Below, piece after piece: positions 2,824 to 56,320 of a stretch of 64,000 nt of DNA. Each line of letters begins with the position of its first letter. Position 1 is the stretch's first letter. Where the stretch lies: the sequence record PQ374922.1; one strand, written 5' to 3'. Under the pieces are notes generated by a model that worked only from the letters and a program-made list of their open reading frames with translations, ran no database searches and was not told the origin of the DNA. This DNA comes from a phage. Position numbers and translations under genes: made by a program.

Positions 2824-3099
2824 ATGAAACGTTATCTGAAGCTGACGACTGTCCTTGAGTCGATCATAGAGTATTTCATCATGCAACACCTCCGCGCTGA
2901 CAACATGCATTTAGACGGTTGCCTGACGTATGACCACAAGATCATTGTCCATTCTGTTGAAGTGGTGGATGATGATCTGATGATTGCAAATGTAGAACAC
3001 TGTCTGTTTGATGAGTCGGTTGATGCGTACTGCCAACCACGGTTCGCAAAAGTCGAGCTAACAAATTGTTGGCCGCCGGAAATGGTTTTTCTATATTGA
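2824..3099 (+). CDS. Hypothetical small protein (about 91 aa)
   Basis: ATG at 2824 with GAGAGG RBS, just downstream of the previous stop. Confidence 0.35.
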   Translation: MKRYLKLTTVLESIIEYFIMQHLRADNMHLDGCLTYDHKIIVHSVEVVDDDLMIANVEHCLFDESVDAYCQPRFAKVELTNCWPPEMVFLY

Positions 3100-3190
3100 C
3101 GTAGAAAGTTAATATTCACGCAAGTTCGCGCTCCGCTTGGTCGCGCACCTTATAACACTAAGGTGTTAACTTTCTTTTCAATAAAAAGTA

Positions 3191-3220
3191 GTTTACATCT
3201 ATGAAAATGCAGTATATTAT
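3191..3220 (+). promoter_or_regulatory. T4-type early (sigma70-like) promoter
   Basis: A-rich upstream tract, -35 GTTTACA, about 17-nt spacer, -10 TATATT/TATTAT, roughly 70 nt upstream of the 3289 gene. Confidence 0.45.
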
Positions 3221-3288
3221 GTTCTCACTACACAGTCAGAACAACAATATGCCGCGGATACGGTCTTAATAACGAAAGGGTTTTTATT

Positions 3289-4125
3289 ATGTCATATATT
3301 CTTCATGTGGATTCTGGAACCAAAATTGAAATTGAAGGCAAAGACGTTGCGGCTATCCAGGCTGAAATCAAAGAAGCAGGTCTGATCATCGGAAACGTTA
3401 CCCTGCGCCGTATGGTTGAAGGTGTTCTTCAGGCTGCCAACGGCTTCGAACTGATTGAAGGTCTGAGCGCTGAAGAGAAGGAAGAAACTCAGCAGGCTCT
3501 GGCGCAAGCCCAAGAGCAAGCCCAAGCTGAAGTATCGCTGAAAGTCGCTGAAACTATTGATGCTGAAGCACCGATCTCTGCCGATGCATGTGAAGCCCCA
3601 GTGTCCGACGCCCCGGTAGACGCGGTTGAAGATGCAGTCAACGCGGCGCTGGAAGAAGGTAATCAGCCGTCCGACGCGAAAATCGGTTCCTTGGCGTCTT
3701 CTATGCTGAAAGAAGCATCGAAGGGTAAGACCCTGACCCCGCAGGCAGCGCTGGTAGAGCGTAAACGCCGTCACACCAAACGTGAGGAAATGGTTGACTT
3801 GGCTCGCGCTTCTAATCACGGTCCGGTCTTGGCGGCGATTGAAGCTGGTGTTGTCCCCGGCGTGTTCCTGAGCTACGTGAACCCAGACATGCGTTGGTTC
3901 CAGTTCCCGGTCACCGAACTGGCTAACCCTGAAAACCTTCACGCTCGCACCAATACGTATGTCGACGTTGCGCCTATCGTTTCCGGTGGCTGGGGCTTCA
4001 GTCTGTACGTGAACGGCAAGTCCTTCACCAAACGTCAGAAGATCAAAGAGTCTGATGCTGAGTCTCTGGTTAAGGCGATCAATGAATGGCTTCCACAGGC
4101 TCTGGCTGAAGCGAAAGCTGTGTAA
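3289..4125 (+). CDS. Hypothetical protein with central Ala/Gln/Glu-rich low-complexity linker (278 aa)
   Basis: ATG with upstream GAAAGGG; two globular segments separated by an AQAQEQAQAE linker. Confidence 0.55.
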   Translation: MSYILHVDSGTKIEIEGKDVAAIQAEIKEAGLIIGNVTLRRMVEGVLQAANGFELIEGLSAEEKEETQQALAQAQEQAQAEVSLKVAETIDAEAPISADACEAPVSDAPVDAVEDAVNAALEEGNQPSDAKIGSLASSMLKEASKGKTLTPQAALVERKRRHTKREEMVDLARASNHGPVLAAIEAGVVPGVFLSYVNPDMRWFQFPVTELANPENLHARTNTYVDVAPIVSGGWGFSLYVNGKSFTKRQKIKESDAESLVKAINEWLPQALAEAKAV

Positions 4126-4154
4126 ATTTAAGTTCAGAAACTGTTCAAAAGATG

Positions 4155-4185
4155 AAGGGGCTGCTATAATAGCAGCTCCTTTTGT
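4155..4185 (+). terminator. Hairpin with TATAAT in the loop plus T-run (terminator and/or early-promoter stem-loop)
   Basis: ggggctgc-TATAAT-agcagctcc followed by TTTTGTTTATT, between the 3289 gene and the kinase gene. Confidence 0.5.
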
Positions 4186-4200
4186 TTATTGGAGCAGTTT

Positions 4201-4860
4201 ATGTCCTACTCCCTGAAGGGGTTGATGAAGCGCCCCGTCCACACATTCTTTAAACCACCAGTCGTAAAGGGGATCTATCCAGCACGAGGGCAAATCTACT
4301 ACGTCAAAGGCTCCAATGGTAGCGGTAAATCCACTGTACCGTCTCAGCTGGCGGAGAGGGATCCTCAGGCGTATGTCGTGACCCATAACGGCAAGGTAAT
4401 GCTGACTGTCTGTCCTTCGTTCAACGTGGTCTGTATCGGTAAATATGACAAGTCGAAGTCCAAGGGGGTTGATTCCCTGAAGGACACTGAGCAGATGTTG
4501 TTCGCGTTGTCTATTGCTGACCAACCAGAATACTTGAAATATGATGTGATTTTCGAAGGTATCATTCCATCCACATTATTGAGTTCTTGGATCCCCCGCC
4601 TGACGCGCCCACCACGTGAATTGGTTGTGCTCTTTATGGACACTCCCCTTGAAACGTGTATCTCCCGCGTTAAATCACGTAACGGTGGTGTGGAATTCAA
4701 TGAAAGTCTGGTGGTCGAGAAGTGGGAGAGAGTTCATGACCATCGTCAACGACATAAAGACTTGTTCCCTACGGTAGCTGCGGGTATGATGAAGTCTCAC
4801 GGCCTAACGGTAGACCAGGCTGTGATGGCATTCCTCTGTCGTGATTTTGGGAGTATCTGA
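4201..4860 (+). CDS. P-loop NTPase/kinase of unknown specificity
   Basis: Walker A GSNGSGKST near residue 40; ATG at 4201 with GGAGCAG RBS; stop overlaps the start of the next gene (TGATG). Confidence 0.65.
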   Translation: MSYSLKGLMKRPVHTFFKPPVVKGIYPARGQIYYVKGSNGSGKSTVPSQLAERDPQAYVVTHNGKVMLTVCPSFNVVCIGKYDKSKSKGVDSLKDTEQMLFALSIADQPEYLKYDVIFEGIIPSTLLSSWIPRLTRPPRELVVLFMDTPLETCISRVKSRNGGVEFNESLVVEKWERVHDHRQRHKDLFPTVAAGMMKSHGLTVDQAVMAFLCRDFGSI

Positions 4861-5906
4861 TGGAAATCAAAGCAATTAACAACAATGACATGTTGAAGCA
4901 GGCTGTCTTGGCTATCCGTGAATTCGGGATCGAATCTGATCCTGGTAATGCTGAAATCAATACTGATAGCACCCGCTTCCTTGATGGTGTGACTATCACT
5001 GTTTCCGATATTCGTGACCGCTGGCTCTCCGTTGAAGGTCGCAACTCATCGGCTATCGCTGCCATCGGCGAGACCTTCTGGGTGTTGTCAGGTCGCAACG
5101 ACATAAAGTTCCTGTCACGCGTATTGCCTCGCGCTGCTAACTTTTCGGATGATGGGGTAACATGGCGAGCTGCTTATGGTCCGCGTCTGTACGCCCATGG
5201 CCAGCTGGATAGCGTTATCAACCGCCTGCGCAAGAACCCAAACACTCGCCAGGCGTACCTCACTATTTATGATCCGGCTTTGGATTCGGATGCTGGTCTG
5301 GCGAAGTTCAGCGAGAGCGGCGAAGCGAAGACCAAGGACATGGTGTGTAACCTGGCTCTGTTGTTCGCCATCGTTGAAGGTCGTCTGAACCTGACGGTCA
5401 TCAATCGCTCACAGGATGTTCTGTGGGGGATGAGTTCAATAAACTTCATTGAGTTCTCTATTCTTCAGGAAGTGATTGCTCGGGTGCTGGACGTTGACGT
5501 CGGTCAGTACAAGCTATTCTCTAATAATCTTCATTACTACAACAATGAAGTCAGCCAGAAGCAGCTGGGAAAGATCACGAAGGACACCAAAGTAGAAGCT
5601 GGGTTCATCAACTCCATGATTCACTTCACGAACGTGACCAACCAGAACCATATCCGCAATCTGTTCACTGGTGTGCTTCATCACTGTGATATCGGCAGCC
5701 CGTGGGAAACTGTGGTCGCCCACCTGAAGGAATATGATGCTGATCGTGGCCTGATTGTACAGATGGCGTACTGTCTGCACTGCAAACTGAACGAAAAGCT
5801 CATTAACCTGGACCTGATTCAGGATCATGGCTTGAACACCGCGCTCACGCATTCCCCGGTTGACCGCAAGATCATTGATCCTAAGTTCCTGGAAGGTGTA
5901 GTATGA
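4860..5906 (+). CDS. Thymidylate-synthase-fold pyrimidine C5 hydroxymethylase-like enzyme (gp42-like, divergent)
   Basis: TS-fold motifs: ETFWVLSGRNDIKFL (cf. ELLWFIKGSTNAKEL), RQAYLTIYDP, candidate catalytic Cys163 in DMVCNL, then 20 residues to RSQD as in TS (R166/D169). The canonical PCH and PFNIAS motifs are not conserved and there is a roughly 100-aa C-terminal extension. Confidence 0.7.
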   Translation: MEIKAINNNDMLKQAVLAIREFGIESDPGNAEINTDSTRFLDGVTITVSDIRDRWLSVEGRNSSAIAAIGETFWVLSGRNDIKFLSRVLPRAANFSDDGVTWRAAYGPRLYAHGQLDSVINRLRKNPNTRQAYLTIYDPALDSDAGLAKFSESGEAKTKDMVCNLALLFAIVEGRLNLTVINRSQDVLWGMSSINFIEFSILQEVIARVLDVDVGQYKLFSNNLHYYNNEVSQKQLGKITKDTKVEAGFINSMIHFTNVTNQNHIRNLFTGVLHHCDIGSPWETVVAHLKEYDADRGLIVQMAYCLHCKLNEKLINLDLIQDHGLNTALTHSPVDRKIIDPKFLEGVV

Positions 5907-6472
5907 TGTATCCAAATCTTGAATTCTTTACGGGGCGCAAGCGCTCCGGTAAGGACTTCTGTTTGGAGTCCCTGATCAGTTATCACCACTTACAGGGTGA
6001 TATGGACATCCAGCGCCTTTCGTTCTCGGATGAACTGCGCCGTGTGGCCAACTACATCTACCCATGGCTCCCAGCGGAGGTAGAGGATGCCGTGAAGGAC
6101 GTTCCTTACGTGCACCCTGATAACCCCAAGGGTTTAACTCCACGGCAGATCTGGCTTCATCTAGGCAGCGATACGGGCTTGCGTTACGTACAACCCGATC
6201 TGTTCCTGGCATTCTTCAAGCGCTTCCAGCTTCCTCTGGTAGAGCAGAACCCCCACGTTCATTATATCGTGAGCGATCTGCGTACCCCTCAGGAATATGA
6301 ATGGGCGCTGAGTACGAAATGTCCTATCACCCGTATTTCAAAGGCCGACCGTGCTGGTATCATAGAGGACGATATAGAGGCTTTCATTGACCAAATGAAA
6401 GTGGACTACGAATTCCTCAATCCATTTGATGGTTGGGAACCGTTCGTTAAATTCTACGGAGAACGTAAATGA
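5903..6472 (+). CDS. 1: Deoxynucleoside monophosphate kinase (T4 gp1-like)
   Basis: FFTGRKRSGKDF (cf. T4 gp1 FLSGVKRSGKDT) and HYIVSDLRTPQE (cf. YYIVPDTRQDHE); ATGA overlap with the upstream gene. Confidence 0.8.
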   Translation: MMYPNLEFFTGRKRSGKDFCLESLISYHHLQGDMDIQRLSFSDELRRVANYIYPWLPAEVEDAVKDVPYVHPDNPKGLTPRQIWLHLGSDTGLRYVQPDLFLAFFKRFQLPLVEQNPHVHYIVSDLRTPQEYEWALSTKCPITRISKADRAGIIEDDIEAFIDQMKVDYEFLNPFDGWEPFVKFYGERK

Positions 6473-7023
6473 TCACAGCAGGGCATATCAAAAGCCTGCT
6501 CGAACTCCAAAAGGCCACTAACGTGGCCTACTTTGGGGAAGAGTGGAAGAATGTATGGAGTCAGAACGCAGTCATCAACTCTATCTATCGTGAGTGGGCA
6601 GAGTTCCTTGATGAAACCACCCGTGACTGGAAGGTTTATGGCAACGACATCGGGTTTGATCATACGAACGCAGTTTATGAACTGGTGGACGTGGTACACT
6701 TCATGTTGTGCTTCATCCTTGTGGACCGCACCAAAGGTGAGATCGAAGAAGAATTTGAAGTCCTTAGTAATCGCGAATTCACCCCATCTGCTTTGGGTGT
6801 TGTAGGGCATCGCAATGTTACGTACCGCCTTGGGCAATTCATGAACGATCCTTGCGTTGAGACTCTCATGTTCTTCCTGTCGTCTGCGTGTTCTTATATG
6901 GAGATCGACATTGAGACTTACATACTGGCACACAAACGCAAGAACGATCGCAATCGCCTGCGTGCTGCTGGTGGCGCGGATTACGATAAGTCCGCAGAAA
7001 CCCCTCTGACCCTGGAGTTCTAA
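6469..7023 (+). CDS. All-alpha NTP pyrophosphatase (dCTPase/dUTPase gp56-like or MazG-like)
   Basis: Acidic helical pattern EWAEFLDETTRDW...YELVDVVHF typical of all-alpha NTP-PPases; ATGA overlap with gp1. Confidence 0.5.
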   Translation: MITAGHIKSLLELQKATNVAYFGEEWKNVWSQNAVINSIYREWAEFLDETTRDWKVYGNDIGFDHTNAVYELVDVVHFMLCFILVDRTKGEIEEEFEVLSNREFTPSALGVVGHRNVTYRLGQFMNDPCVETLMFFLSSACSYMEIDIETYILAHKRKNDRNRLRAAGGADYDKSAETPLTLEF

Positions 7024-7565
7024 TGTTTACAGTCGTCGTTTCATACCATGCGGAGAACGCTGCTCAGGCATCCTCCAAATTCGCCGAGCACATCATCGGC
7101 GGCGGACATAATGTATTCCTTACTGAATACAACAGGCCTGTTAAACCGGGCGACGGTCTTTCGGCGACTGTTACGCATAAGATCGCCAGCGAGCAACCAG
7201 AGTCTCTGTTCAGGATGATCGAAGAGTATGCCGGTGGTGGCACCAAGATACCAGATGAACTGGTAGACGTCTATTTTGAAGGCTCGATCTATTACATCCA
7301 CGCTATGCCAAAGGATGTAACCATTGAACAGATGATGTATATCCTGAATATAGCACTGAACACTGCGTGCATCAACCGCACGAACTACAACAATCTGCGC
7401 AATATGTACCTAACCGACCGGCATAATGACGCATCGTCGCTTGTTGAGACAATGTCCCTGAAGAGCATCCAAGAGGCGGTTAACATTTTGTCCCAGAAGG
7501 TTATGGGTGTAGAATTATTAACGACGATCAACAATAAAGAGGAAGTGAAATGGCCAGTTCATTAA
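7023..7565 (+). CDS. Hypothetical protein (180 aa)
   Basis: ORF translationally coupled (TAATG) to the upstream gene; no motif recognised. Confidence 0.5.
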   Translation: MFTVVVSYHAENAAQASSKFAEHIIGGGHNVFLTEYNRPVKPGDGLSATVTHKIASEQPESLFRMIEEYAGGGTKIPDELVDVYFEGSIYYIHAMPKDVTIEQMMYILNIALNTACINRTNYNNLRNMYLTDRHNDASSLVETMSLKSIQEAVNILSQKVMGVELLTTINNKEEVKWPVH

Positions 7566-8635
7566 TGGACCGCATGCTGAAGGTTGCTAAGAAACACGAT
7601 GACCAGGCTTCAGTGCTGTCCAAATCCGACGCTCTGGAACCGTCTATCATCTGTTCTACTGGTATTCCCCTGATCGATATCGCATGGTCTGGGCGTATTG
7701 ACGGCGGTCTGATCTCCGGTATCAAGATGATGGTGGGTGATTCCCGTACCTTCAAAACGATGTTCGGTCTGGTAGACGTCAAGGCGTACATGGACAAGTT
7801 CCCTGATGCTATCTGCGTCTTTGCGGACTCAGAAAAGGGTGCCAACGCCGATTACTGGACCTCTATGGGCATTGACATGGACCGCGTCCTGTACGTACCG
7901 ATCGACAACGTTGAACAGACCAAGATCCGCTTGCTGCAGATCCTACAGGAAGTCAAGAAAGGCGACCATGTTATAATCTTCATCGACTCTATCAGCCAAC
8001 TTCCCTCCACCAAGGAAGTTGAAGATGCGATCAAAGGGAACGACACTCAAGACATGACCCGCGCCCGTGCCCTTAACAGCTTCTGGCGTGTCATGACTCC
8101 CGAAATCAACAGCAAAAATCTCGTGTGTGTTTGGATCAACTCCTATTACGATGAGATCGGCAACCAGTATGCCGAGCCCAACATCAAAGGCGGCAAGCAG
8201 GGCTTCTTATCCTCCAACTTGATCTGGTTTATCACCCGTTCTCAGGTGAAGGAAGACAAAGATCTGCTGGGCTGGAACTTCAACATAAGCATCATGAAAG
8301 GTCGCCATGTCAAAGAGAAAGCCAAGCTCCCTGTGACGGTACTGTACAACGGTGGTATTGATCGCTGGAGCGGCCTGCTTGAGATCGCTCGTGCTCTGGG
8401 TTATGTTGATATGCCGTCTTCCGGTTGGTATGTGCGTACAGCCAAGGGTGGTTTCGATCCTGAGAAGGAAAAGAAATATCAAAAGCGTCAGATGGATGAT
8501 GATTTCTGGTATCCGCTGCTGGAGAATGTCAACTTCGCCGATGACGTGAAGAAAATGTTCGGTGTTTCTAACGGTACTGTTATGCCTGCTAACATGCTGG
8601 AGCAAATGGACCATGTTATCAACACAAGCGAATAA
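7550..8635 (+). CDS. uvsX: UvsX RecA-like recombinase
   Basis: Strong similarity by eye to T4 UvsX: FADSEKGANADYWTSMGIDMDRV, IIFIDSISQL, DMTRARALNSFWRVMTPEI. Confidence 0.9.
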   Translation: MASSLMDRMLKVAKKHDDQASVLSKSDALEPSIICSTGIPLIDIAWSGRIDGGLISGIKMMVGDSRTFKTMFGLVDVKAYMDKFPDAICVFADSEKGANADYWTSMGIDMDRVLYVPIDNVEQTKIRLLQILQEVKKGDHVIIFIDSISQLPSTKEVEDAIKGNDTQDMTRARALNSFWRVMTPEINSKNLVCVWINSYYDEIGNQYAEPNIKGGKQGFLSSNLIWFITRSQVKEDKDLLGWNFNISIMKGRHVKEKAKLPVTVLYNGGIDRWSGLLEIARALGYVDMPSSGWYVRTAKGGFDPEKEKKYQKRQMDDDFWYPLLENVNFADDVKKMFGVSNGTVMPANMLEQMDHVINTSE

Positions 8636-8942
8636 CAGTGGAGGGGGAGGAGACTCCCCCAATAACTACACAATCATCGACCCTGGTGCTGATCAGCTGG
8701 CGATCATCAAGATCACTTCTGGCAAATTCCGTGGTGTTCAATTCCGGTTCGGCAAGGTGGCCATCAACGAAGTGGACGGCGAACCCCGCCTGTCTTTCGT
8801 GACTGATATATTGAAGAAACCATTGCGTCTGATGTTTGTGAATTTGAAAGAAAATGACTTGTTCACTGAGGTGTCAGGGGATATCCTTGTAGAACTCATG
8901 CAGCGTAATGCTCAGGAATATAATAAATTTTTGGTGGGATGA
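8562..8942 (+). CDS. Hypothetical protein overlapping the 3' end of uvsX (occupies the gp40 position)
   Basis: ORF in an alternative frame beginning 74 nt inside uvsX; hydrophobic N-terminus MFLTVLLCLLTCW. An in-frame GTG further downstream could be the true start. Confidence 0.35.
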   Translation: MFLTVLLCLLTCWSKWTMLSTQANNSGGGGDSPNNYTIIDPGADQLAIIKITSGKFRGVQFRFGKVAINEVDGEPRLSFVTDILKKPLRLMFVNLKENDLFTEVSGDILVELMQRNAQEYNKFLVG

Positions 8943-8954
8943 CCGAGGGGTCCT

Positions 8955-9437
8955 ATGTTAACACAACAGTCTCTTAAAGAAATTCTGCATTACGACGAAG
9001 ACACTGGGTGGTTTACATGGCTGACGGATCGTGGTGGTACTGCCAAAGCCGGAACAAGAGCTGGGTCTTTAAAACCTGACGGATACAGGGTTATAAGAAT
9101 CGGCGAGAAGAAGCATTTAGAACACAGGTTGGCATTTCTCTATAAAACTGGTTCATGGCCAAAGAAATTGGTCGACCACAAAAATCGTATAAGAGACGAC
9201 AACCGCTGGTTGAACCTTAGAGAATCTAATGAAAGCCAGAATGCCGTCAACACAGATTTGTATAGCCACAACACCACAGGCGCGAGGGGTGTATTTCGAT
9301 ACAAGAATAGATGGTGTGTGCAAATCAGAGTTAATGGGAAATATAGATCGTTTGGGTATTACGATGAATTCGAAGAAGCAAAGGAAATGGCGAACAAAGC
9401 CTACAAAGAATTGTTCGGAGAATTTTATCAAGGTTAG
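8955..9437 (+). CDS. HNH homing endonuclease with AP2-like DNA-binding domain
   Basis: GYRVIRIGEKKHLEHRLAFLY...VDHKNRIRDDNRWLNLRE (HNH) and GVFRYKNRWCVQIRVNGKYRSFGYYDEFEEA (AP2-like); inserted between the uvsX block and gene 41. Confidence 0.85.
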   Translation: MLTQQSLKEILHYDEDTGWFTWLTDRGGTAKAGTRAGSLKPDGYRVIRIGEKKHLEHRLAFLYKTGSWPKKLVDHKNRIRDDNRWLNLRESNESQNAVNTDLYSHNTTGARGVFRYKNRWCVQIRVNGKYRSFGYYDEFEEAKEMANKAYKELFGEFYQG

Positions 9438-9477
9438 TGTTTGGTCTCTGTCAAACCAGATAATTTAGGAACGCAAT

Positions 9478-10902
9478 ATGTTACTCGAATCTGTCGTGCT
9501 TTCACAGTTGATTTACAATGAAGATTACCAAAGAAAGATCCTGCCGTACCTGAAAGCCGATTATTTTGACAACGAAGGCGAAAAGGTCATCTTTGGTCTG
9601 ATTGACAGTTATACCTCAGAGTACAATGCCCGCCCGTCTGTCGAAGCACTATCTATAATTCTTGAACGGACAAAGCTGAACGAATATGTGTTTGACCAGG
9701 CGGTATCTGCCCTGGAGAACATCAACGACAACACCTTCAATGAAGAGTGGCTGGCGAAGGAAACCGAGGCTTGGGCGCGGCAAAAGGCCGTACACAACGC
9801 AATCAAGACCGCCGTTAACATCTACGGTGACGAGAAGCGCAAGGACGAGATGAACAACATCCCGACCATGTTGCAGGAAGCCCTGGCGATCCGGTTTGAT
9901 TCATACCTCGGTCACATCTATTGGGAGATGGCGGCAGAGCAGTATGACCACATGAACTCCAACGAGGCCAAGATCCCGTTCGCAGTTGAGATATTCAATA
10001 AGGCGACACGTGGTGGCGTTGGTAAGAAGACACTGAACATCGTAACAGGTGCGATCAACGCAGGTAAGACCACAACGCTGATTGACCTGACCGCAGGGTA
10101 CTCTGAGCAGGGGCTGAACGTCTTTGTCTTCACCCTTGAAGTGGCTGAGAACGTCTGGCGACACCGTCTTGATGCCCGTATCATGCGTCGCGACTTTGAG
10201 TCTTTAGAGAAACTCACAAGGCACGAGTATATTGCAACGATAGAGAAGCTCCGCAGTCGCCAAGATGGTGCGCCCAAGGGTGATATCGTCATCAAGGAAT
10301 ATCCTTCCGGTACTGGACACACAGGTTTATTCCGCCGCGATATCCTTGAGTACATCCAGGCAACTGGTCGTGCTCCTGATGTTATCGTTATTGACTATCT
10401 TGGCGAAGCTGCTTCCTCGCGCCTGCCTGCCCACCTGATGCAGAACACGAACGTCTATTACACGTCTGTGGCTCGTGAGTTTCGTGCGCTGGGATTTGAG
10501 TTTGATGTCCCTGTATGGACTGGTATGCAGTTCAATCGTGAGAATCAGAATAGCACTGATGGTGGAATCAGTGATTTGGCAGATGCTATCGGTATTCCGA
10601 AGGTGGCCGACTTCATCATGGCATTCTATGCTCCTGACGAACTGGCGGCGGTCAAGAAAGCCCGAGCCTCAATACTCAAGAACCGTTATGCCAACAAGCA
10701 GAAGCTGAAATCATTCCTGTTTGGTATGGACCAAGACAAACAGATCCTGTTTGACCTGGACTGGAATGAAGTTAAGAAGGACCTGACTGAGGCTGAGGCC
10801 AAATATGTCGAAAACGTACACATCAAACATGACCTCAACAAGTCCGGGGCTGCTGTCAGCGATGAGCAGAAAGCCCAAACGGTCAATAATTGGAAATTCT
10901 AG
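9478..10902 (+). CDS. 41: Replicative DNA helicase (gp41, DnaB-like)
   Basis: 474 aa; Walker A GAINAGKTTT; DnaB-like architecture; synteny with uvsX. Confidence 0.9.
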   Translation: MLLESVVLSQLIYNEDYQRKILPYLKADYFDNEGEKVIFGLIDSYTSEYNARPSVEALSIILERTKLNEYVFDQAVSALENINDNTFNEEWLAKETEAWARQKAVHNAIKTAVNIYGDEKRKDEMNNIPTMLQEALAIRFDSYLGHIYWEMAAEQYDHMNSNEAKIPFAVEIFNKATRGGVGKKTLNIVTGAINAGKTTTLIDLTAGYSEQGLNVFVFTLEVAENVWRHRLDARIMRRDFESLEKLTRHEYIATIEKLRSRQDGAPKGDIVIKEYPSGTGHTGLFRRDILEYIQATGRAPDVIVIDYLGEAASSRLPAHLMQNTNVYYTSVAREFRALGFEFDVPVWTGMQFNRENQNSTDGGISDLADAIGIPKVADFIMAFYAPDELAAVKKARASILKNRYANKQKLKSFLFGMDQDKQILFDLDWNEVKKDLTEAEAKYVENVHIKHDLNKSGAAVSDEQKAQTVNNWKF

Positions 10903-10906
10903 GCAA

Positions 10907-10943
10907 TTCAATAAGGCGGGTCATAGGGTATAATTCTATGATC
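10907..10943 (+). promoter_or_regulatory. Early-promoter stem-loop (TTCAATAA, then hairpin with TATAAT in the loop)
   Basis: TTCAATAA at 10907-10914; hairpin tcatag-ggTATAATt-ctatga at 10921-10941; about 25 nt upstream of the 10967 ATG. Confidence 0.4.
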
Positions 10944-10966
10944 TGAATGTAAACCAGGAGCACATC

Positions 10967-11302
10967 ATGTCACACAATGATTTTATGGCTGGCCTGGTGC
11001 AGGCCGCCAAACAGGTGTGCCACACCAAACAAGCGATTGAGCTGAGTCCGGAGCAGACTCTGGAGTTCTTCAACAATCGTAAAATCTGGGAGGAATATGG
11101 AATTGGTATGATATGCCAAGAGGGTGAACTCGTACAGCTGGATCTACCGTCATTTCCCCTTCCAGTGCGCACCAACACAGTGGAATGGTATACGACGGAA
11201 GATGGTGTAGAGATCATCCCGAAGTTCCAGTATCACTCAATCGTAAACTTCTTTTTACGCCGTTGCGGGACTAATCTGATCCCACGAGGTATGAGATCTT
11301 AA
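10967..11302 (+). CDS. Hypothetical protein (111 aa)
   Basis: ATG with AGGAG RBS. Confidence 0.5.
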   Translation: MSHNDFMAGLVQAAKQVCHTKQAIELSPEQTLEFFNNRKIWEEYGIGMICQEGELVQLDLPSFPLPVRTNTVEWYTTEDGVEIIPKFQYHSIVNFFLRRCGTNLIPRGMRS

Positions 11303-11317
11303 CAAGAGGAACACCAA

Positions 11318-11632
11318 ATGTCTGTAGAACAAATCGGCTTTTATGTACTACCATCTGATCCTGAATCCCGTCGCAAGCTGATAGGTGCGATTGAAAACTG
11401 TCGTGCCGCCCAGGTCCGCATCAAGTCGGAACAGACTTTCATTACTGAGACTCTGGCCGAGCTGGCGAAAGACACGGGTATCAAGGCCAGCGATTTGCGC
11501 AAGGTTGTATCCGACCGCGCCAATGGAACTTACCATAAGACGATCGAAACGAGCGAGAAATATCAAGACTTATACGAGTCTCTATTCCCGAACGCCAAGC
11601 CCGATCGAGATCCGAATGCCAGTGGCGAATAA
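11318..11632 (+). CDS. Hypothetical protein (104 aa)
   Basis: ATG with GAGGAA RBS; followed by a strong terminator. Confidence 0.5.
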   Translation: MSVEQIGFYVLPSDPESRRKLIGAIENCRAAQVRIKSEQTFITETLAELAKDTGIKASDLRKVVSDRANGTYHKTIETSEKYQDLYESLFPNAKPDRDPNASGE

Positions 11633-11651
11633 GTCAATCGAACACCAAGAA

Positions 11652-11675
11652 GCCCAGTCAAGTACTGGGCTTTTT
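11652..11675 (+). terminator. Rho-independent terminator
   Basis: gcccagt-caagt-actgggc stem-loop followed by TTTTT. Confidence 0.6.
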
Positions 11676-11759
11676 AACTTCAATAACTTTACTTTCAAGA
11701 AATAATCGCCTAATATTTAATCTGTATTGAAGAGTTACAACTACATCATGAGGCTGGAA

Positions 11760-12953
11760 ATGAACGTCAAAACATTCAATATTCCGATCGACAATGAAGG
11801 GTTGGTAGTTGAGCGACTGAAGAAGCTCGAGCGCACTGCCGAAAGGTTGGGTGTTCCGTTTCCGACTGTGACTTATGGTGAACCCTTCAAAACCCACACC
11901 CGCGACTTCACTGGTGAGATCCTTACTCACTGGTGGAAACCTGTTACTCTCGAAGGCGAAGGCATTGACCGCCCCATCTCTTATGGTGGCTGGAAGATCA
12001 TCGGTCAGTTCAATCACGAATATCCAAAGGTTATTCTTAACCGCCTGTCCGACAACATCAATCCCGACTTCATCCGTCGCTTCGAGGCAGAGAACGTCTC
12101 TTGGTGTCAGCATTGCAATCTAGCCATCCGTCGCAAGAACACATATGTGATTGAAAATGAGGAAACGCACACCCAGATGCTGATTGGTAGCACCTGTATG
12201 CATCATTATGTGCCTCATCAGAAGTCCCTTGACGCGATTATGTCTTACTATCTGGAAATCCAAGAGTTCTTCATGCCAGACGAGGACGACCCAGAGGGTA
12301 TATATCGCGTCCAAAATGAGCGCTTCACCGACACCCACAGTTACCTGCGCGCATGCTTCCAGGTAATGCTGGCAGGCGTGGATATCAAGTCTGAACTGTT
12401 TGACAAAGTACTGGGCTATGTCCGGTCTCACCAGAAACCAAAAGCAGGTTCCGATGAAGAGTATTTCGTAAACAAGGCACACGAATACCGTGAAGATGCC
12501 GAGTCGGAAATGTACCATATGAAGCTCTTCATCAGTGCGCTGTCCGAATCCAATGAGTTCAATGTCCGCCTGAAACGCATGTGTGAACCCGGCTATCACC
12601 TCATCAAGGATAACAACACAGTCCGCTGGGGTGCCAAGAAGTATTACGATTACATCCATCGTCCTCGTACTGACCGCAAGGCGGAGAACAAATGGGTGGG
12701 CGAAGTCGGTGAAATGCTGGAAGTGCAAGTCAGGTTCGACAAGCGCACCTTCCTCTTCTCCAATGAATATGGTGATAGTTACCTGTTTACTTTCAAAACA
12801 GCAGAAGGCAATACAATTACATGGAAGACCTCTTATATGGATACAGAGTTCTTGCAGGGCGATATGATCATCCGTGGTCGTGTCAAAGAACTGACTGAGT
12901 ACAACGGCGTTAAACAAACTCAGGTCACCAGAGCCAAATTGAGGAAATTATGA
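11760..12953 (+). CDS. Hypothetical protein with Cys/His cluster (putative zinc-binding), about 397 aa
   Basis: CQHCNLAIRRKNTYVIENEETHTQMLIGSTCMHH; ATG at 11760 with GAGG RBS (the ORF table allows a TTG at 11727). Sits where gene 61 would be in T4, but no Toprim motif was found. Confidence 0.55.
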   Translation: MNVKTFNIPIDNEGLVVERLKKLERTAERLGVPFPTVTYGEPFKTHTRDFTGEILTHWWKPVTLEGEGIDRPISYGGWKIIGQFNHEYPKVILNRLSDNINPDFIRRFEAENVSWCQHCNLAIRRKNTYVIENEETHTQMLIGSTCMHHYVPHQKSLDAIMSYYLEIQEFFMPDEDDPEGIYRVQNERFTDTHSYLRACFQVMLAGVDIKSELFDKVLGYVRSHQKPKAGSDEEYFVNKAHEYREDAESEMYHMKLFISALSESNEFNVRLKRMCEPGYHLIKDNNTVRWGAKKYYDYIHRPRTDRKAENKWVGEVGEMLEVQVRFDKRTFLFSNEYGDSYLFTFKTAEGNTITWKTSYMDTEFLQGDMIIRGRVKELTEYNGVKQTQVTRAKLRKL

Positions 12954-13066
12954 ATTTAATTGAGTTTGTCCTGAAGTCGTTCGCCTTTGGTCTGATAGCA
13001 TGCGGGATGATTACAGCTGTGCTTCTCATCATAGCCCTGGTCATCCCCTTTAAGAGGAAACGTTGA
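12950..13066 (+). CDS. Small hydrophobic protein (38 aa, one TM helix)
   Basis: ATGA overlap with the upstream stop and TGATG overlap with the downstream start; GAGGAA RBS; sequence MNLIEFVLKSFAFGLIACGMITAVLLIIALVIPFKRKR. Confidence 0.4.
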   Translation: MNLIEFVLKSFAFGLIACGMITAVLLIIALVIPFKRKR

Positions 13067-13278
13067 TGGAATGTTCATGCGGAGGGCAGGGCACAAGTGC
13101 TTACCTGCCATTCACCACTGTGAAGGAAGCCGAAGCCGCTGGATTTGCCGTGGACAAGGCTCCCTGTGTAATCGCCACGAAGGATTGCCCGTGCTGTAAG
13201 AGGCACTCTCAGGACGTCTTCTACGCCCCTGATGCGCGTCCGGCTACGGTCAACCTGCTCTCACTGATGAGGAAGTGA
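13066..13278 (+). CDS. Small Cys-rich protein (about 70 aa)
   Basis: CSCGG...CPCCKRH motifs; translationally coupled to the small TM ORF. Confidence 0.45.
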   Translation: MECSCGGQGTSAYLPFTTVKEAEAAGFAVDKAPCVIATKDCPCCKRHSQDVFYAPDARPATVNLLSLMRK

Positions 13279-13452
13279 CATGCGCGAGTATTTCAACTGG
13301 CTGTTGGGTAAGCCCCTGATGCGCTGAGATCCGTTGTCTAATCGATGCCATTGACGCCCGACAACACAAGCGCCGGATTAATCACACAGAGGCTCAGGCC
13401 GAAATTAAAATCGTGAAGAAGTCCACAAGGCTCTGGGTTTCATAACAAATAA

Positions 13453-13485
13453 TTCAATAAACTATTCACCCATATAATACATGGG
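13453..13485 (+). promoter_or_regulatory. Early-promoter stem-loop (TTCAATAA, then cccat-ATAATAC-atggg)
   Basis: Same architecture as at 10907, about 25 nt upstream of the 13507 ATG. Confidence 0.35.
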
Positions 13486-13506
13486 AACTTACAGAAGGAA
13501 CAGACC

Positions 13507-13848
13507 ATGACTACACTCGTAGAAACATTATTCCCAGGCTGCGTGCTTGGGCGCGGTGGATCCGAAGCCAACGGGCTACCGATTGACGTCGAACCTCAGA
13601 ACTGTGTTATTGTTGACAAGTTTCACGACAACCATTATGCCCTGAACAATCGTCGTGACCACTATCTTGTTTCCGTAGGAGATTCTTTGGTCAGTCTGCG
13701 CATCTGCAAGGCTATGCCAGGATCCGGCTATGGAGCATTCGCCTATATTCACAGCGTGTCAAATGACGAGCTGGGTAAAGAAGCTCTGGTTGAAAAATTC
13801 AAGAGTTGGAAGGATTCTTTCACCTCAATTGAACCTCCGAAGAAATAA
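13507..13848 (+). CDS. Hypothetical protein (113 aa)
   Basis: ATG with GAAGGAA RBS. Confidence 0.5.
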   Translation: MTTLVETLFPGCVLGRGGSEANGLPIDVEPQNCVIVDKFHDNHYALNNRRDHYLVSVGDSLVSLRICKAMPGSGYGAFAYIHSVSNDELGKEALVEKFKSWKDSFTSIEPPKK

Positions 13849-13908
13849 CTGAGGACTACACACTGACCTCATTATCGGTCAGGCAAAATCTCACACCCGC
13901 CAATAATC

Positions 13909-13951
13909 TATTGAAGTCCCCAGGGTTATAATAGCAGCACATATAACCCTG
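13909..13951 (+). promoter_or_regulatory. Early-promoter stem-loop upstream of DNA ligase
   Basis: TATTGAAG followed by a 10-bp hairpin cagggttata/tataaccctg containing TATAAT; shares the tataatagcagc core with the 4155 element. Confidence 0.4.
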
Positions 13952-13961
13952 GAGACACCAC

Positions 13962-15392
13962 ATGATCCCTATCCTTGAAACAGTCCACCGACTTCGCGAA
14001 ACCAAAGGCAGCAATGCGAAGAAAGCCGTGCTGACCGAAGCATTCAAGAACAACCCAGACTTGGCAGACTTCCTGCAATATGTCTATGACCCAATGACGT
14101 CGTTCTATCGGACTGAGTTGAAGCTCAGCGCGTACCCTCGCATGCTCGTCCGTGAGAAGACTGATGACATCAGCGAAGTCTATGACGTCCTCGACCAGAT
14201 GGCACAGCGCCTTGTCGGTGGCCAAAAGGCTGATGCCCTGTTGGCCTCTGTCGCCCTGAAGATGGATCCCCAATACCACGAACTCATTCAGATGATCCTA
14301 GACCGTGATATCAAGGCGGGTATCGCTGAGAAGGGCATCAACGCTGCATTCAACGCCGCCGGAGGCACTGGACGCCTGATCAACATTCTTCCATATCATC
14401 GTTATGACAACATGACGATTGACCTGCTGAAGAAGATGGACTTCAAGCGCGGCGTCTACAGCCAGCTGAAGTCAGACGGTATGTTCGCCAACATCATCTG
14501 TCGTTACAACAAAGAGCCTGAGATTCGCTCTCGCTCCGGTTCCCTTATTGCAGGCGGTTCGGTTGATAACCTTTCACTGGTGTTCAAAGACCTGATCTAC
14601 GATGCGGGGATTGGTGAGAGTGTGTTCCATGGTGAACTTCTCGTTGTTGACCTCAAGTCGAATACCATCCTGCCTCGTGCTGTCGGTAACGGTAAACTCA
14701 ACAGCGTGATTCAGACAGGAGAACCCCTAGAAGATCGTTATCGGGTGATCTACCGGGTGTGGGATGTTGTCCCGTACGACAACTGGTTCAACTCCCAGCG
14801 CGTGGACACCCCGTATGAGCGCCGCTTCGATATCATCCAGCAACTGTTTGATGAAGACGACGGTCTGGTTCAGGTTCAAGAAACCCGCGTTGTTCACTCA
14901 TTTGCCGAAGCCGTTGACCACTTCAAAGACGCGCTGGCTCGCAAAGAAGAAGGCACGATATGTAAGGCCGCCGACATGCCTTGGGAAGATGGTACTTCTT
15001 CTGAAGGTCTGAAGCTGAAGATGGAGGTTGAGTGTGACCTTGAAATCGTGGGCTTCAACGAGGCTGACAAGAAGGGTAAACACGCCAAGACTTTTGGCTC
15101 ACTGATTTGTAAAACTTCCGACAGCCTGCTTGTTGTTGGCGTATCAGGGATCTCAGATGAGCTGAGACGCCATATGTGGGAGAACCAGGGCGACTACATT
15201 GGCAAGATCGCCGCAGTGCTCTCCAATGGCGTACAGGATAAGACAGATGATGCGATGAAGTCTTTGTTCCTGCCTCGCCTTGTAGAAGTCCGCATTGACA
15301 AGAAAGTGGCCAACACACTGGATGAAGTCTATGCGATACAGAAAGCGTACATCGAAAACATCGCATTCCTGTTGGAGAAGAGTAATGGGTGA
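13962..15392 (+). CDS. 30: ATP-dependent DNA ligase (T4 gp30-like)
   Basis: 476 aa; nucleotidyltransferase motif I KxDG in YSQLKSDGMFA (cf. T4 QLKADGARCF); N-terminal region similar to T4 ligase. Confidence 0.9.
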   Translation: MIPILETVHRLRETKGSNAKKAVLTEAFKNNPDLADFLQYVYDPMTSFYRTELKLSAYPRMLVREKTDDISEVYDVLDQMAQRLVGGQKADALLASVALKMDPQYHELIQMILDRDIKAGIAEKGINAAFNAAGGTGRLINILPYHRYDNMTIDLLKKMDFKRGVYSQLKSDGMFANIICRYNKEPEIRSRSGSLIAGGSVDNLSLVFKDLIYDAGIGESVFHGELLVVDLKSNTILPRAVGNGKLNSVIQTGEPLEDRYRVIYRVWDVVPYDNWFNSQRVDTPYERRFDIIQQLFDEDDGLVQVQETRVVHSFAEAVDHFKDALARKEEGTICKAADMPWEDGTSSEGLKLKMEVECDLEIVGFNEADKKGKHAKTFGSLICKTSDSLLVVGVSGISDELRRHMWENQGDYIGKIAAVLSNGVQDKTDDAMKSLFLPRLVEVRIDKKVANTLDEVYAIQKAYIENIAFLLEKSNG

Positions 15393-23746: not shown

Positions 23747-23815
23747 TTCCGGTTCCTCTTAATAAACGAAGGGAAGTATATACTCCCCCTTCTTCAATAA
23801 CCGCTGAATCTTTAT

Positions 23816-27201: not shown

Positions 27202-27251
27202 TTGATGTTACCAAACAAGGGGTCGAGGCGGTAATAATACCGCCTTTTTCT

Positions 27252-27662
27252 TCAATAGAGGTCTTCGGAAAAGAGTTCGCGGAAAGGGGTTGTCTTCAGG
27301 CGCACCTGATTGATCTGTCCAGCTTCACGGGCTACGATGCATGCCTCTTCACGAGTGAGGAAGTTGCCCTGGTTGTCGATGAATCCCTGTTCGCGGGTAT
27401 GGATGGATTTAATGACGCCTGCTTCTTTCAGGATCTTGAGCTGGCTGTTCATGAATTTGCTATGGTGACGGTCGGCAACGACGATCACGTCACCATATTT
27501 GTTGGCGGCAGCGACCACACGGCGCTCCCAGGCACCTTCGACAGGAAGTTCACGAGTGTACAATGGAATCATCGTATCGCCGATGTCATCCCCTTTCACC
27601 TGTGAGAACAACTTGCCTTCAGTGCCCGTTGGGAGTTCACGAAAATATCCCAGTAATTTCAT
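27252..27662 (-). CDS. Hypothetical protein (136 aa)
   Basis: ORF; no motif recognised. Confidence 0.5.
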   Translation of the reverse strand: MKLLGYFRELPTGTEGKLFSQVKGDDIGDTMIPLYTRELPVEGAWERRVVAAANKYGDVIVVADRHHSKFMNSQLKILKEAGVIKSIHTREQGFIDNQGNFLTREEACIVAREAGQINQVRLKTTPFRELFSEDLY

Positions 27663-40121: not shown

Positions 40122-40194
40122 AGTATAGAAATCCTATCAATGTCAAAGGGGAACATATTGGTTGAGTGGGTATAATACGGTGGGCGTCTTCAAT

Positions 40195-40222
40195 TGAAAA
40201 AGCCCTCGGCTGAGGGCTTTGT
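40195..40222. terminator. Bidirectional hairpin terminator (agccctc-ggct-gagggct)
   Basis: Stem-loop flanked by an A-run and a T-run, between rIIA and the downstream minus-strand operon. Confidence 0.55.
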
Positions 40223-40227
40223 TCAGA

Positions 40228-40917: not shown

Positions 40918-41450
40918 TTTGTTTCCCCCTTGGCAGCATAGGACAGTGCCTGAACAATCATTACAGCCAGATCGATCGGCGAGTAGGTGCTGTTCAGATC
41001 TTCTCGAACACTCTGCTCGATTTCTTCATCAGACTGGACCACAGGACAGTTCTTCCCCTGGCGACGGCGTTCTGCGTTGATCATATCACGCAGGAGCAGA
41101 TCGGTGAAGGAGTACTCGTCAAAGTTCTCCAGGTATTTCTGAATCCCAGTGGATACAGGGGTTGGCTCCGGCTCCTGTGCCCTAGGATCTTTCAGGGCAG
41201 CAACAGTGGCATCAATATCCCACAGAGGGTTCATCAGTAACAGAAGATTAACTGTTTCTCCTGACTCTGAAGTCGGGTTATTTCCCAGCACCTTGTAAAG
41301 ATTCTTCAGGGTGCTGTCAAAGGTCAGAACGGTCTGTGCCAGTTCTTCATAAGTTGGTTTGGTAGTCATCAGCGTTTGCTCCGGCGTTTGTTCTTCATCT
41401 TTCTTGGCTTGTCTGTCATGTTCCTGTCCACGAAAAAGGGGATAGGGCAA
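40914..41450 (-). CDS. Hypothetical protein (178 aa; start possibly internal)
   Basis: ATGA overlap with the downstream gene. Confidence 0.45.
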   Translation of the reverse strand: MPYPLFRGQEHDRQAKKDEEQTPEQTLMTTKPTYEELAQTVLTFDSTLKNLYKVLGNNPTSESGETVNLLLLMNPLWDIDATVAALKDPRAQEPEPTPVSTGIQKYLENFDEYSFTDLLLRDMINAERRRQGKNCPVVQSDEEIEQSVREDLNSTYSPIDLAVMIVQALSYAAKGETK

Positions 41451-41481
41451 TAATACCCTATCCCCTTTTATTGAAGAACGA

Positions 41482-41895
41482 TTAGTCTTCAGATTCTACT
41501 TTGCCGCCTCGTAGATCCCGAACTGGTTTACCGTCCGGTGCCATCACATAAATGGTGTTGATTGTCTCAAACCAAGACAGCTGGTCAACACCCTCGGTGT
41601 ATGGGGTCACCGGAACAGAAGTCTTGACCTCTTTGCCTTTCGTGTTCGGATGTTCAACCACATCCAAGAACGCACATTTCCCGCTCGGAAGGATCACACC
41701 ATCAGTAAACAGCACGATCTTCTTGCGAGGGTTGCTGGCCTCACCCAGGCACACCACCAGATGATGGATCATCTCGGGGCGGTCAATCAACATGTCGTCT
41801 TTGATAATCCCTTGCTTGATAGCAGAGATCACCACTTCATCCAACAGAGCCTGCTGTTGGTCCAGTGTCAGGGATTCAGTGAGTTTCACGCTCAT
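41482..41895 (-). CDS. Hypothetical protein (137 aa)
   Basis: ORF; no motif recognised. Confidence 0.5.
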   Translation of the reverse strand: MSVKLTESLTLDQQQALLDEVVISAIKQGIIKDDMLIDRPEMIHHLVVCLGEASNPRKKIVLFTDGVILPSGKCAFLDVVEHPNTKGKEVKTSVPVTPYTEGVDQLSWFETINTIYVMAPDGKPVRDLRGGKVESED

Positions 41896-43815: not shown

Positions 43816-43983
43816 TTGGATTCTCCCATGACGATAACGGAAGCGCCAAAAGTCGCTTCCATGTTGAGTAGAGACATATCTTCAATTCGTTGCATTGCCA
43901 TGATGTATATTCTTGCAAAAAGAAAGGGGAACGGGCTAATAATAACCCATTCCCCTTTATTGAAGGAAGCAACCCCAGTCAGA

Positions 43984-45984: not shown

Positions 45985-46898
45985 CCCTTCTTCATCAGGT
46001 CAAGGAGAGAGCGCGACGCTGCCTTCGTTGCTTCTGGCTGGGCGCTCGCCTTGGTTTTAGTTTTGGATGCCTTCTGCGGCTTCTCAGGGACTCTGTGCGC
46101 CAAAGGATCATGGCCGCCAACCTCACGAGTCATCGGATTGGTTTCACAGTAGGCGTAGAAGTCTTTGGTGTGTATGTCAACACCACGCAGTTCAGAGCGT
46201 ATCTGATGACAAATCGCATTACCCACAACCCACAGCGGGGCGTCGAACGGTAGTACCGCCAACTCGGACTGCTGTTTGGTCGTGAACTCCTGGGTGTTGG
46301 CATCCGGTGATTTATACAGGATATCCTGTCCGCTGTAATCATCAACAGCCACAGTGAAGCCCAGCGCCAGCATTTCGGCCTTCGACTTCTCAAACTCCTT
46401 GTAGTAAGATTCGTTGCGCGACCAGCCGGAGTTCCCTGCTTCTTTACCAGATCGACCACGGATACGAGCATCGTACTGATAGCGGTCGGGGTACGCAAAG
46501 TACAGCAGCGCCAATGATTCAATCGGATAGTTCTTGAACATCCATTCAGGACGCCATTTGTCCGACAGCATGAGAGGTTCGCCCTCGCACACCAGAGTGT
46601 ATCCCTGAACCAACCAGCACTTGATTAGATCACGAGCAATATCGCCTGAGCCTGTAGCAGCATGGATTGCATCCATTGAAGTCCAGGAAGCCAGGCCGGA
46701 TTTGTTAGACACGGTGTACTGTCCAACGAAGATTAACTTCAGCTCTCCGAACTTCAAGCCAAACGGGCGAGTCTTGTCACCAACGGTGTAGGTCAGTTCG
46801 GTAGGCTCCAGCTTCGTACGGAGCCATTCGATGAACTGGACCACTCTCGTACCCTTGCCCGTGGCCGAGGTGCCTTTCACTACAATTATTTTAGCCAT
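45981..46898 (-). CDS. P-loop kinase-like protein (305 aa) with Lys/Ala/Thr-rich C-terminal tail
   Basis: N-terminal Walker A VKGTSATGKGT; no HAD DxDGT motif, so not a T4 Pnkp-type bifunctional enzyme. Confidence 0.6.
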   Translation of the reverse strand: MAKIIVVKGTSATGKGTRVVQFIEWLRTKLEPTELTYTVGDKTRPFGLKFGELKLIFVGQYTVSNKSGLASWTSMDAIHAATGSGDIARDLIKCWLVQGYTLVCEGEPLMLSDKWRPEWMFKNYPIESLALLYFAYPDRYQYDARIRGRSGKEAGNSGWSRNESYYKEFEKSKAEMLALGFTVAVDDYSGQDILYKSPDANTQEFTTKQQSELAVLPFDAPLWVVGNAICHQIRSELRGVDIHTKDFYAYCETNPMTREVGGHDPLAHRVPEKPQKASKTKTKASAQPEATKAASRSLLDLMKKG

Positions 46899-49018: not shown

Positions 49019-49071
49019 CTGTTTGTCAAAGGGTTAACAGGGGGAATTATATCCCCCTTTGGTTTATTGAA

Positions 49072-52978: not shown

Positions 52979-52995
52979 AATATTTATTGAATAAA

Positions 52996-53024
52996 GTTTA
53001 CTTCTTCAATAACTGGCGTATACT
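52996..53024 (+). promoter_or_regulatory. T4-type early promoter
   Basis: -35 GTTTAC, 17-nt spacer, -10 TATACT, with A/T-rich TTATTGAATAAA upstream. Confidence 0.45.
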
Positions 53025-53073
53025 TCTAATTGTAGTACGAACAAACAACAATCTGAAGAGAAGGAAATACATC

Positions 53074-56192: not shown

Positions 56193-56320
56193 CGGTGTAT
56201 CCTCAAATCTATGACAGGGGGGGGTTAACGGTTAAATTTTAAACCCCCTTTGTATCATTGAACAAACTACGATAAAGGAGGACATGCTTGGGTCGATAAG
56301 AAGATAATAAGACAGGGATA

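Follow-up and report, generated by a model that had tools for sequence, protein, structure and literature searches.

Phages of the Ackermannviridae ('Viunalikevirus') carry a published regulatory motif, TTCAAT[N14]TATAAT, with a handful of perfect copies per genome (PMC7283392, the sole direct match to the motif among the papers searched). Here we describe the copies of this motif in a 64,000-nucleotide stretch of phage DNA (sequence record PQ374922.1, the whole of which is referred to as the window), where a first-pass annotation had noticed a recurrent intergenic box followed by a hairpin carrying TATAAT and had likened it to the promoter-early stem-loops (PeSLs) of T4-like phages. The motif probably originates from the genus paper of Adriaenssens et al. 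2012, the abstract of which reportedly names conserved regulatory sequences. No functional test of the motif was found in the literature searched. The DNA of ViI-like phages contains hypermodified bases in place of thymine. Hypermodified thymidines have been described in phage DNA (PMC5889632). The 2011 papers on the phages Ag3 and CBA120 reported eight sigma70-type promoters only, described early and middle promoters as not identifiable, and found homologs of MotA, AsiA, Alt and ModA to be absent (PMC3121705; PMC3184105). PeSLs consist of an AT-rich stretch and a stem-loop just 5' of a sigma70-type −35/N17/−10 promoter, followed by a Shine-Dalgarno sequence and a start codon, and the 'PmSL' variants of Vibrio phage nt-1 carry a Mot box and a −10 (PMC4122927). 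For the sites in the window we consider it likely that they are copies of the Ackermannviridae family promoter, with a box that is read by a phage factor together with the host sigma70 polymerase and with hairpins that act as overlapping terminators.

In a megablast search, positions 3000-14500 of the window were 99.5% identical to Escherichia phage YX22 and also matched many Ackermannviridae (ViI-like) phages of Escherichia, Shigella, Salmonella, Dickeya and Klebsiella. Searches of the phage collection matched 276 to 354 Ackermannviridae records, and annotated relatives carry the classification Ackermannviridae; Aglimvirinae. Judging from these matches, the phage is a ViI-like member of the Ackermannviridae (Agtrevirus). 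Genes of the window were predicted with a codon-usage model. Genome-wide counts refer to the window together with the remaining YX22 genome (L004 and L005), ~155 kb in total. Conservation was followed in 19 IMG/VR contig loci around rIIA, ranging from 99% to 48% rIIA identity, of which 17 include the region upstream of rIIA and two are truncated and lack it. Phage A221 (L002 and L003) served as reference for the comparison of indels and replacements. Hexamers of the form TAnnnT with at most one mismatch to TATAAT were counted as −10-like, and a hairpin was called stable with a dG of −10 or lower and at least five enclosing pairs.

The window contains 16 copies of the box TTCAATAA, where 2.2 would be expected, and none of 100 shuffles reached 16; the element proposed by the first-pass annotation is indeed enriched over chance. 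Genome-wide, the box is the most over-represented intergenic 8-mer in a seed-free count (24 copies versus 1.3 expected), and four copies are located in the 134 kb of coding DNA. The pattern TTCAATAA-N10-14-TAWWAT has six matches in the window against 0.01 expected, five of them with a spacer of 12 nt. Furthermore, the genome-wide distance between box and −10 shows a sharp maximum at 12 nt, with 8, 11 and 24 sites at 0, 1 and ≤2 box mismatches, while the reversed-sequence control gave 0, 0 and 2 sites at this spacing. An artefact of chance or composition was rejected based on the shuffles, the expected counts, the 8-mer ranking and the spacing control. The main form that we observed is TTCAATAA-N12-TAT(A/T)AT. 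Nearly all box-N12 sites point in the same direction as the next gene, the start codon is found 54-63 nt from the box (counted from its first base), and the leader often terminates in a(c/t)atcATG. Information content is restricted to TTCAATAa and TATaAT plus a patch rich in G at the spacer's 3' end. About one third of all intergenic regions contain a box.

Compared with the published motif, TTCAATAA-N12-TATAAT is the same string as TTCAAT-N14-TATAAT and nothing essential differs; the core finding of box and −10 is an already known hallmark of the family and the motif itself adds nothing new. Our analysis adds the 8-bp extent of the box, the invariant spacing, the ~20-25 degenerate copies per genome and the fixed distance to the start codon, as well as the observation that a terminator-like hairpin frequently holds the −10 in its loop. 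Part of this may have been published before. The less familiar one is the location of the −10 within the terminator hairpin of the upstream gene in about half of the copies. The window likewise contains the companion motif CTAAATAcCcc, the second published regulatory motif of the Ackermannviridae, which we take as the late promoter. It was found three times as CTAAATACCCC, at 54167 (−), 54266 (−) and 63957 (+), and its sub-strings rank next after TTCAATAA among the enriched intergenic 8-mers.

The layout is conserved among relatives. All 48 box/−10 pairs in the 17 loci, down to 48% rIIA identity, are spaced by N12 and located on the coding strand, and cassette positions, when compared across genera, are mostly conserved and syntenic. 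Upstream of rIIA, three cassettes have orthologs of 96-100% identity in loci with ~54% rIIA identity, which probably belong to Kuttervirus, while the alignable region averages 75.5%. The box is also enriched in a distant Vibrio member (11 copies versus 1.2 expected) and a distant Serratia member (8 versus 1.2) of the family and weakly enriched in a 31-kb Klebsiella locus (4 versus 1.0). The boxes in these three adjoin −10-like hexamers or fall inside TTTAC-type promoters.

A common layout had been claimed for ten sites in the window, and this was correct for five of them, which hold an exact box followed by N12 (class A). On the plus strand, the cassette at 13453-13478 has its box at 13453-13460 and TATAAT at 13473-13478, with a distance of 54 nt between box start and start codon; the only hairpin is a weak one of 5 bp (z −0.6). 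In the minus-strand cassette at 41429-41475, the box (41468-41475) precedes a TATTAT (41450-41455) that a hairpin of 16 pairs (41434-41469; dG −31, z −6.5) holds in its loop. TTTTT follows the hairpin, and the ATG lies 56 nt from the box start. This cassette is conserved across genera, and the changes in its stem are of the G-C to G-U type plus compensatory ones. A similar arrangement occurs at 43917-43964 (−), where the box at 43957-43964 is followed by TATTAT (43939-43944) and a terminator-like hairpin (43923-43958; z −5.8) has this −10 in its loop and a T-run behind it, with the ATG 63 nt from the box start. The cassette at 49039-49071 (−) starts 1 nt past the stop codon of the DNA polymerase gene; its box (49064-49071) precedes TATAAT (49046-49051). 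This −10 is placed in the loop by a 7-bp GGGGGA/TCCCCC hairpin (49039-49058), which has no clear T-run and a z of about −2. The fifth site, 59810-59835 (−), comprises the box at 59828-59835, N12 and TATAAT at 59810-59815 and shows no significant hairpin (z −0.6). The other five of the ten depart from the layout. At 10907-10945 (+), an exact box (10907-10914) is separated by N14 from TATAAT (10929-10934), with the start codon 60 nt from the box and a moderate hairpin (10917-10945, z −2.3) around the −10. At 4144-4182 (+), the degenerate box TTCAAAAG (4144-4151) is followed by N13 and TATAAT (4165-4170), with the start codon 57 nt from the box, and the −10 lies within a 13-pair terminator-like hairpin (4154-4182; z −5.6) that precedes TTTTGTTT. 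The sites at 13908, 23800 and 27258 contain the box as its reverse complement. As a further observation at the 41475 cassette, the ATG after the box opens a 16-codon, very basic mini-ORF (window 41369-41419, −; MTDKPRKMKNKRRSKR), the TGA stop of which overlaps the ATG of a 151-aa gene; in relatives, the equivalent ATG appears to begin the full-length protein.

Folding of the individual regions revealed strong structures (z −5.4 to −6.5) in 4140-4200, 13900-13965, 41420-41482 and 43905-43972, moderate ones (z about −2) at 10900, 23745, 27205 and 49010, and none at 13445 and 59780, where z is about −0.6. Of the 15 box-linked −10 hexamers in the genome, 8 are located in the loop of a stable hairpin, compared to 14 of 192 (7%) other intergenic −10-like hexamers (Fisher p = 1.8e-5) and 20 of 429 coding ones (Fisher p = 4e-7). 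The hairpin is a real but not universal companion of the box, and the first-pass description of a box with a TATAAT hairpin is about half right. The hairpins at 4154-4182, 41434-41469 and 43923-43958 sit just 3' of the stop codons of co-directional genes and resemble Rho-independent terminators in their G+C-rich stems and subsequent T-runs; in an independent scan, the highest-ranking terminator-like sites of the respective regions were 4154-4182 (+) and 43958-43923 (−). They differ from such terminators in that the loop also provides the −10 of the promoter that follows, and other box-linked hairpins, among them 49039-49058 and 13916-13956, have no T-run. None of the hairpins matches an Rfam family, the only Rfam matches being two tRNAs. 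We regard overlapping terminators as the best reading of the hairpins present in about half of the copies, as far as this can be judged from sequence.

The stems are maintained across relatives: substitutions mainly convert G-C to G-U, two pairs are changed on both sides and not a single pair of the core stem is broken. Such changes agree better with selection for pairing in the RNA than for a cruciform in the DNA. Phage N4 has hairpin promoters, and the hairpins described here could in principle act in a comparable way, as extruded DNA cruciforms that present a single-stranded −10, instead of as RNA terminators. The position of the −10 precisely in the loop at 8 of 15 sites would be expected in such a case, as would those hairpins that have no T-run. 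However, most of the substitutions between lineages preserve RNA pairing while they weaken DNA pairing, the strongest hairpins carry canonical terminator tails, and half of the promoter-like sites do without a hairpin, which makes a cruciform mechanism very improbable.

The repeated box...TATAAT element is very probably a phage promoter. According to the model of a family promoter with overlapping terminators, the 8-bp box TTCAATAa, exactly 12 nt 5' of the sigma70-type −10 TAT(A/T)AT, would be positioned at about −32 to −25, and transcription would start ~7 nt past the −10, which would result in a leader of 20-30 nt with the Shine-Dalgarno sequence. In about half of the copies, a G+C-rich inverted repeat made up of the spacer and the bases that follow the −10 places the −10 in the hairpin loop. 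Read-through RNA from the upstream gene would contain this hairpin, often with a U-run, which could terminate or stabilise the transcript, whereas RNA started at the cassette would begin within the 3' arm of the hairpin and hence escape it. Each cassette could thus represent a compact terminator/promoter junction, and a −10 in a terminator loop would be a tidy natural part for insulated expression units.

The geometry corresponds to that of T4 middle promoters and of the PmSL elements. In T4, where MotA and AsiA bring about sigma appropriation, a box stands in for the −35, and its end is 12 (plus or minus 1) nt 5' of a TAnnnT −10. Here as well, a box in place of the −35 ends 12 nt 5' of a sigma70-type −10. 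In contrast to T4, TTCAATAa (TTCAATAA) is unrelated to the TGCTT core of the MotA box and no MotA or AsiA homolog was detected in this genome. What appears to be the main pre-late promoter class has the exact geometry of T4 middle promoters, yet MotA and AsiA were not detected. As the box is too near the −10 for a normal −35 and is located at the position of a MotA box, we infer that sigma70 polymerase would read the −10 and a phage factor the box. Alternatively, the host sigma70 polymerase might use the sites as early promoters on its own, with the box as an unusual −35-like or UP-like contact and without any phage factor. Such a simple mechanism would be in line with a −10 near the consensus sigma70 hexamer, with the presence of the box next to T4-early-like TTTACA/TTTACT-N17 promoters and with searches that turned up no phage factor. 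The 14 nt between TTCAAT and TATAAT, however, are outside the 16-18 nt that sigma70 normally uses, and no TGn extended −10 was seen at box-N12 sites. A consensus scan showed no enrichment of canonical sigma70 promoters, which were rejected as the identity of the sites on this basis. Moreover, the box is invariant from Vibrio to Escherichia hosts and better conserved than a typical −35, which suits a dedicated reader. Use by sigma70 polymerase alone seems unlikely to us for these reasons.

Other copies of the box adjoin or sit inside T4-early-like promoters of the form TTTAC(A/T)-N16/17-TAT(A/T)(A/C)T, for example at window 3177, 11679 and 53005, L004 14720 and 21648, and L005 12084. Box-associated TTTAC(A/T)-N16/17 sites number only three in the window (3192, 11688 and 52997). 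At 3177-3220 (+), the box (3177-3184) is located upstream of TTTACA (3192-3197), N17 and TATTAT (3215-3220), and this promoter is the best sigma70-like match (10/12). The promoter-like site at 11679-11716 (+) starts with a box (11679-11686) directly after a terminator hairpin; the box abuts TTTACT (11688-11693), which is followed by N17 and TAATAT (11711-11716). The third site, 52984-53024 (+), is an inverted pair of TTATTGAA (52984-52991) and TTCAATAA (53005-53012), the second box being placed within the 16-nt spacer of TTTACT (52997-53002)...TATACT (53019-53024). Such inverted pairs, TTATTGAA-N13-TTCAATAA, occur at window 52984/53005 and at L004 14713/14734.

These arrangements raise the question of whether TTCAATAA could primarily be an operator for a phage DNA-binding regulator, for instance for the shut-off of early promoters, with the N12 spacing merely reflecting the regulation of ordinary promoters. 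The position of the box between −35 and −10 of TTTACT-type promoters or just upstream of them would fit an operator, and so would the inverted pairs and the clusters of two to three boxes at one conserved early gene in several genera. The dominant class, with its strict spacing and orientation relative to the −10 and with no recognisable −35, looks instead like a core promoter element. In addition, the consensus shows no palindromic extension of the box, and a palindromic operator TTATT-S-AATAA was rejected since positions 5' of the box carry no information. We consequently give the operator function only a small chance of being the primary one.

Several points weigh against the preferred reading as a factor-dependent family promoter with overlapping terminators. 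Firstly, half of the sites have no hairpin and several hairpins have no T-run, and a role as terminator can therefore not be general. Secondly, a pure −30 promoter element does not explain why the box is also found inside the spacer of TTTACT-N16/17 promoters, upstream of them, and as inverted pairs. Thirdly, neither a MotA/AsiA homolog nor another box-binding protein was found in any search run. Finally, promoter activity, start site and timing are deductions from the sequence, as are the need for a factor and termination itself.

The likeness to PeSLs that was noted in the first-pass annotation is partial. Similar to PeSLs, the cassettes form a unit of promoter, stem-loop, Shine-Dalgarno sequence and start codon, the latter two at its 3' end, which fills a short intergenic gap at a gene boundary, is better conserved than the neighbouring genes and sometimes adjoins gene indels. 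They differ in that class A sites have no −35 and place the box 12 nt from the −10 instead of a −35/N17/−10 promoter, and in that the hairpin encloses the −10 at 8 of 15 sites, whereas the PeSL stem-loop sits upstream. A hairpin upstream of the promoter was found at three sites only (40198, 11679 and 3177). The first of these is the degenerate site upstream of rIIA (40172-40226, −), where TTCAATTG (40191-40198) is followed by N13 and TATTAT (40172-40177) and a separate terminator hairpin (about 40203-40226) is located 5' of the box, which corresponds to the order in PeSLs. Furthermore, flanking by two cassettes was not seen at the indel examined and indels are not enriched at cassettes, although the sample is small. 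Membership in the PeSLs was rejected because of the different layout and the absence of the two-cassette geometry in the case examined.

The cassettes had also been suggested to be mobile and to mark module boundaries. In this case they would mediate recombination, with excision and insertion of minicircles, and thereby shuffle accessory genes in the manner of PeSLs. Support for this is anecdotal. About nine indel or replacement events separate the window from A221, and two of them start immediately past box promoters (window 43895 and 53082); at the inverted pair at 52984-53024, the gene replacement begins just past the downstream start codon. One cassette precedes alternative genes in different phages, and cassettes are far better conserved than their flanking genes. 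In the cassette of L022 that is orthologous to the one at window 43964, the hairpin (L022:5427-5470) is present as the exact reverse complement and the −10 position reads TAATAA. This looks like the inversion of a palindromic segment and hints at occasional hairpin-mediated rearrangement. Nevertheless, only about three of the nine indels are near a box, which in this small sample equals the intergenic baseline of ~1/3 of regions with a box, and an enrichment of indels at cassettes was therefore rejected. An ORF of ~64 codons follows cassette 43964 in L006 and L010 and is missing from the window, but a second cassette was looked for on its far side and none was found. Together with the layout, which is unlike the PeSL definition, and the syntenic position of most cassettes across genera, this leaves mobile cassettes as a quite improbable explanation. 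In a separate observation, two unrelated genes after box promoters (window 43895-43915 and 53060-53085) share their leader and first codons (a(t/a)acatcATGgcaat), and it is exactly at these two sites that the window departs from A221. Recombination might occur at such short stretches of common leader.

The box does not vary between Vibrio and Escherichia phages, which suggests that its reader, if a phage factor, is conserved. Pfam and PHROGs searches with eight proteins, i.e. six early-gene products and two histone-like proteins, gave no match to MotA or AsiA. The six genes directly 3' of T4-early-like promoters had no Pfam family and matched PHROGs of 'unknown function' only, and five of the six proteins had no match to PDB sequences. 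When T4 MotA and AsiA were compared to all 188 predicted proteins using phmmer and blastp, with a MotA query that is 98% identical to a real MotA, only noise was obtained.

One early protein of 162 aa (L004 14137-14625; YX22 WPH64487.1, CBA120 orf104 family) emerged as a candidate. It is basic, 94% identical between genera with 54% rIIA identity, and reaches the Vibrio and Serratia members, and in those members from Escherichia, Serratia and Klebsiella that were examined, two to three boxes are present in the promoter of its own gene. Depositors annotated this protein and a 114-aa early protein, the two that were checked, as 'hypothetical'. An AlphaFold model built with 22 homologs (mean pLDDT 83) shows two alpha/beta domains; this predicted model's C-terminal domain gave no more than a grey-zone fold match to the MotA 'double-wing' DNA-binding domain. 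Foldseek searches with the model returned nothing informative, the family profile did not find MotA among PDB sequences, and hhalign gave a probability of 0.6% for the alignment of the family with a genuine MotA family alignment. The 162-aa protein is therefore a lead and not a finding. It may be speculated, with a rather slight chance of being right, that the Ackermannviridae possess a switch similar to sigma appropriation, in which an early phage protein such as this one would read TTCAATAA at about −30 and activate the box-N12 promoters. It might at the same time shut off the TTTACT-type early promoters, and the terminators with a −10 in the loop would insulate the genes. If so, the 162-aa protein would be an analogue of MotA without detectable sequence homology, and the recognition of pre-late promoters in ViI-like phages, a question dating from 2011, would be explained. 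The discovery of the reader would account for temporal gene control in a family that is used for biocontrol and phage engineering.

The three sites with a box in reverse orientation were considered separately. At 13908-13956 (+), CTATTGAA (13908-13915) is followed by N11 and TATAAT (13927-13932), which lies in a strong hairpin (13916-13956; dG −21 kcal/mol, z −5.4). The 3' arm of this hairpin covers the Shine-Dalgarno sequence GGAG of the DNA ligase gene (start codon 13962), and the hairpin could control translation instead of terminating transcription. The site at 23769-23800 (−) has TTATTGAA on the minus strand (23793-23800), N12 and TATACT (z −2.4), with TATATA at the tip of the hairpin 23769-23790 (−). 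At 27226-27258 (−), CTATTGAA (27251-27258) and N11 precede a TATTAT in the loop of a GGCGGTA/TACCGCC hairpin (27226-27245; z −1.9). A second class formed by (C/T)TATTGAA 11-12 nt from a −10-like hexamer was rejected, as its three to four genome-wide occurrences are inseparable from chance. The 12-mer core TATAATAGCAGC, which the first-pass annotation had seen in two copies, is present at 4165 and 13927; it forms the stem at one site and the loop at the other. By our own estimate, ~100 exact pairs of 12-mers are expected by chance in 64 kb, so that this sharing carries no weight, and it was rejected as meaningful on account of both the differing structural roles and the chance expectation.

Some further features of the window were also noted. 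The DNA polymerase gene is uninterrupted (49072-52071), while that of A221 contains a 467-bp insertion (L002 and L003 52016-52483; window point 50652-50654) and is annotated as two CDS. The insertion is probably an intron or other mobile insertion. A region of ~2.8 kb (56193-58999) holds almost no convincing ORFs and only two tRNA genes, Ser-GCU and Met-CAU; at the equivalent place CBA120 has four tRNAs and a degenerate one (PMC3184105). The rest of this region may consist of other RNAs or of tRNA genes that have decayed. An ORF of 160 aa (8955-9437, +), whose codon usage is atypical, is absent from A221, where 12 bp take the place of 540 bp, and looks by eye like an HNH/AP2-type homing endonuclease. 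Another ORF of 228 aa (46891-47577, −) has a low codon-usage score, and its N-terminus (...YVGVTSEPDRRLAEHK...) reads like that of a GIY-YIG homing endonuclease.

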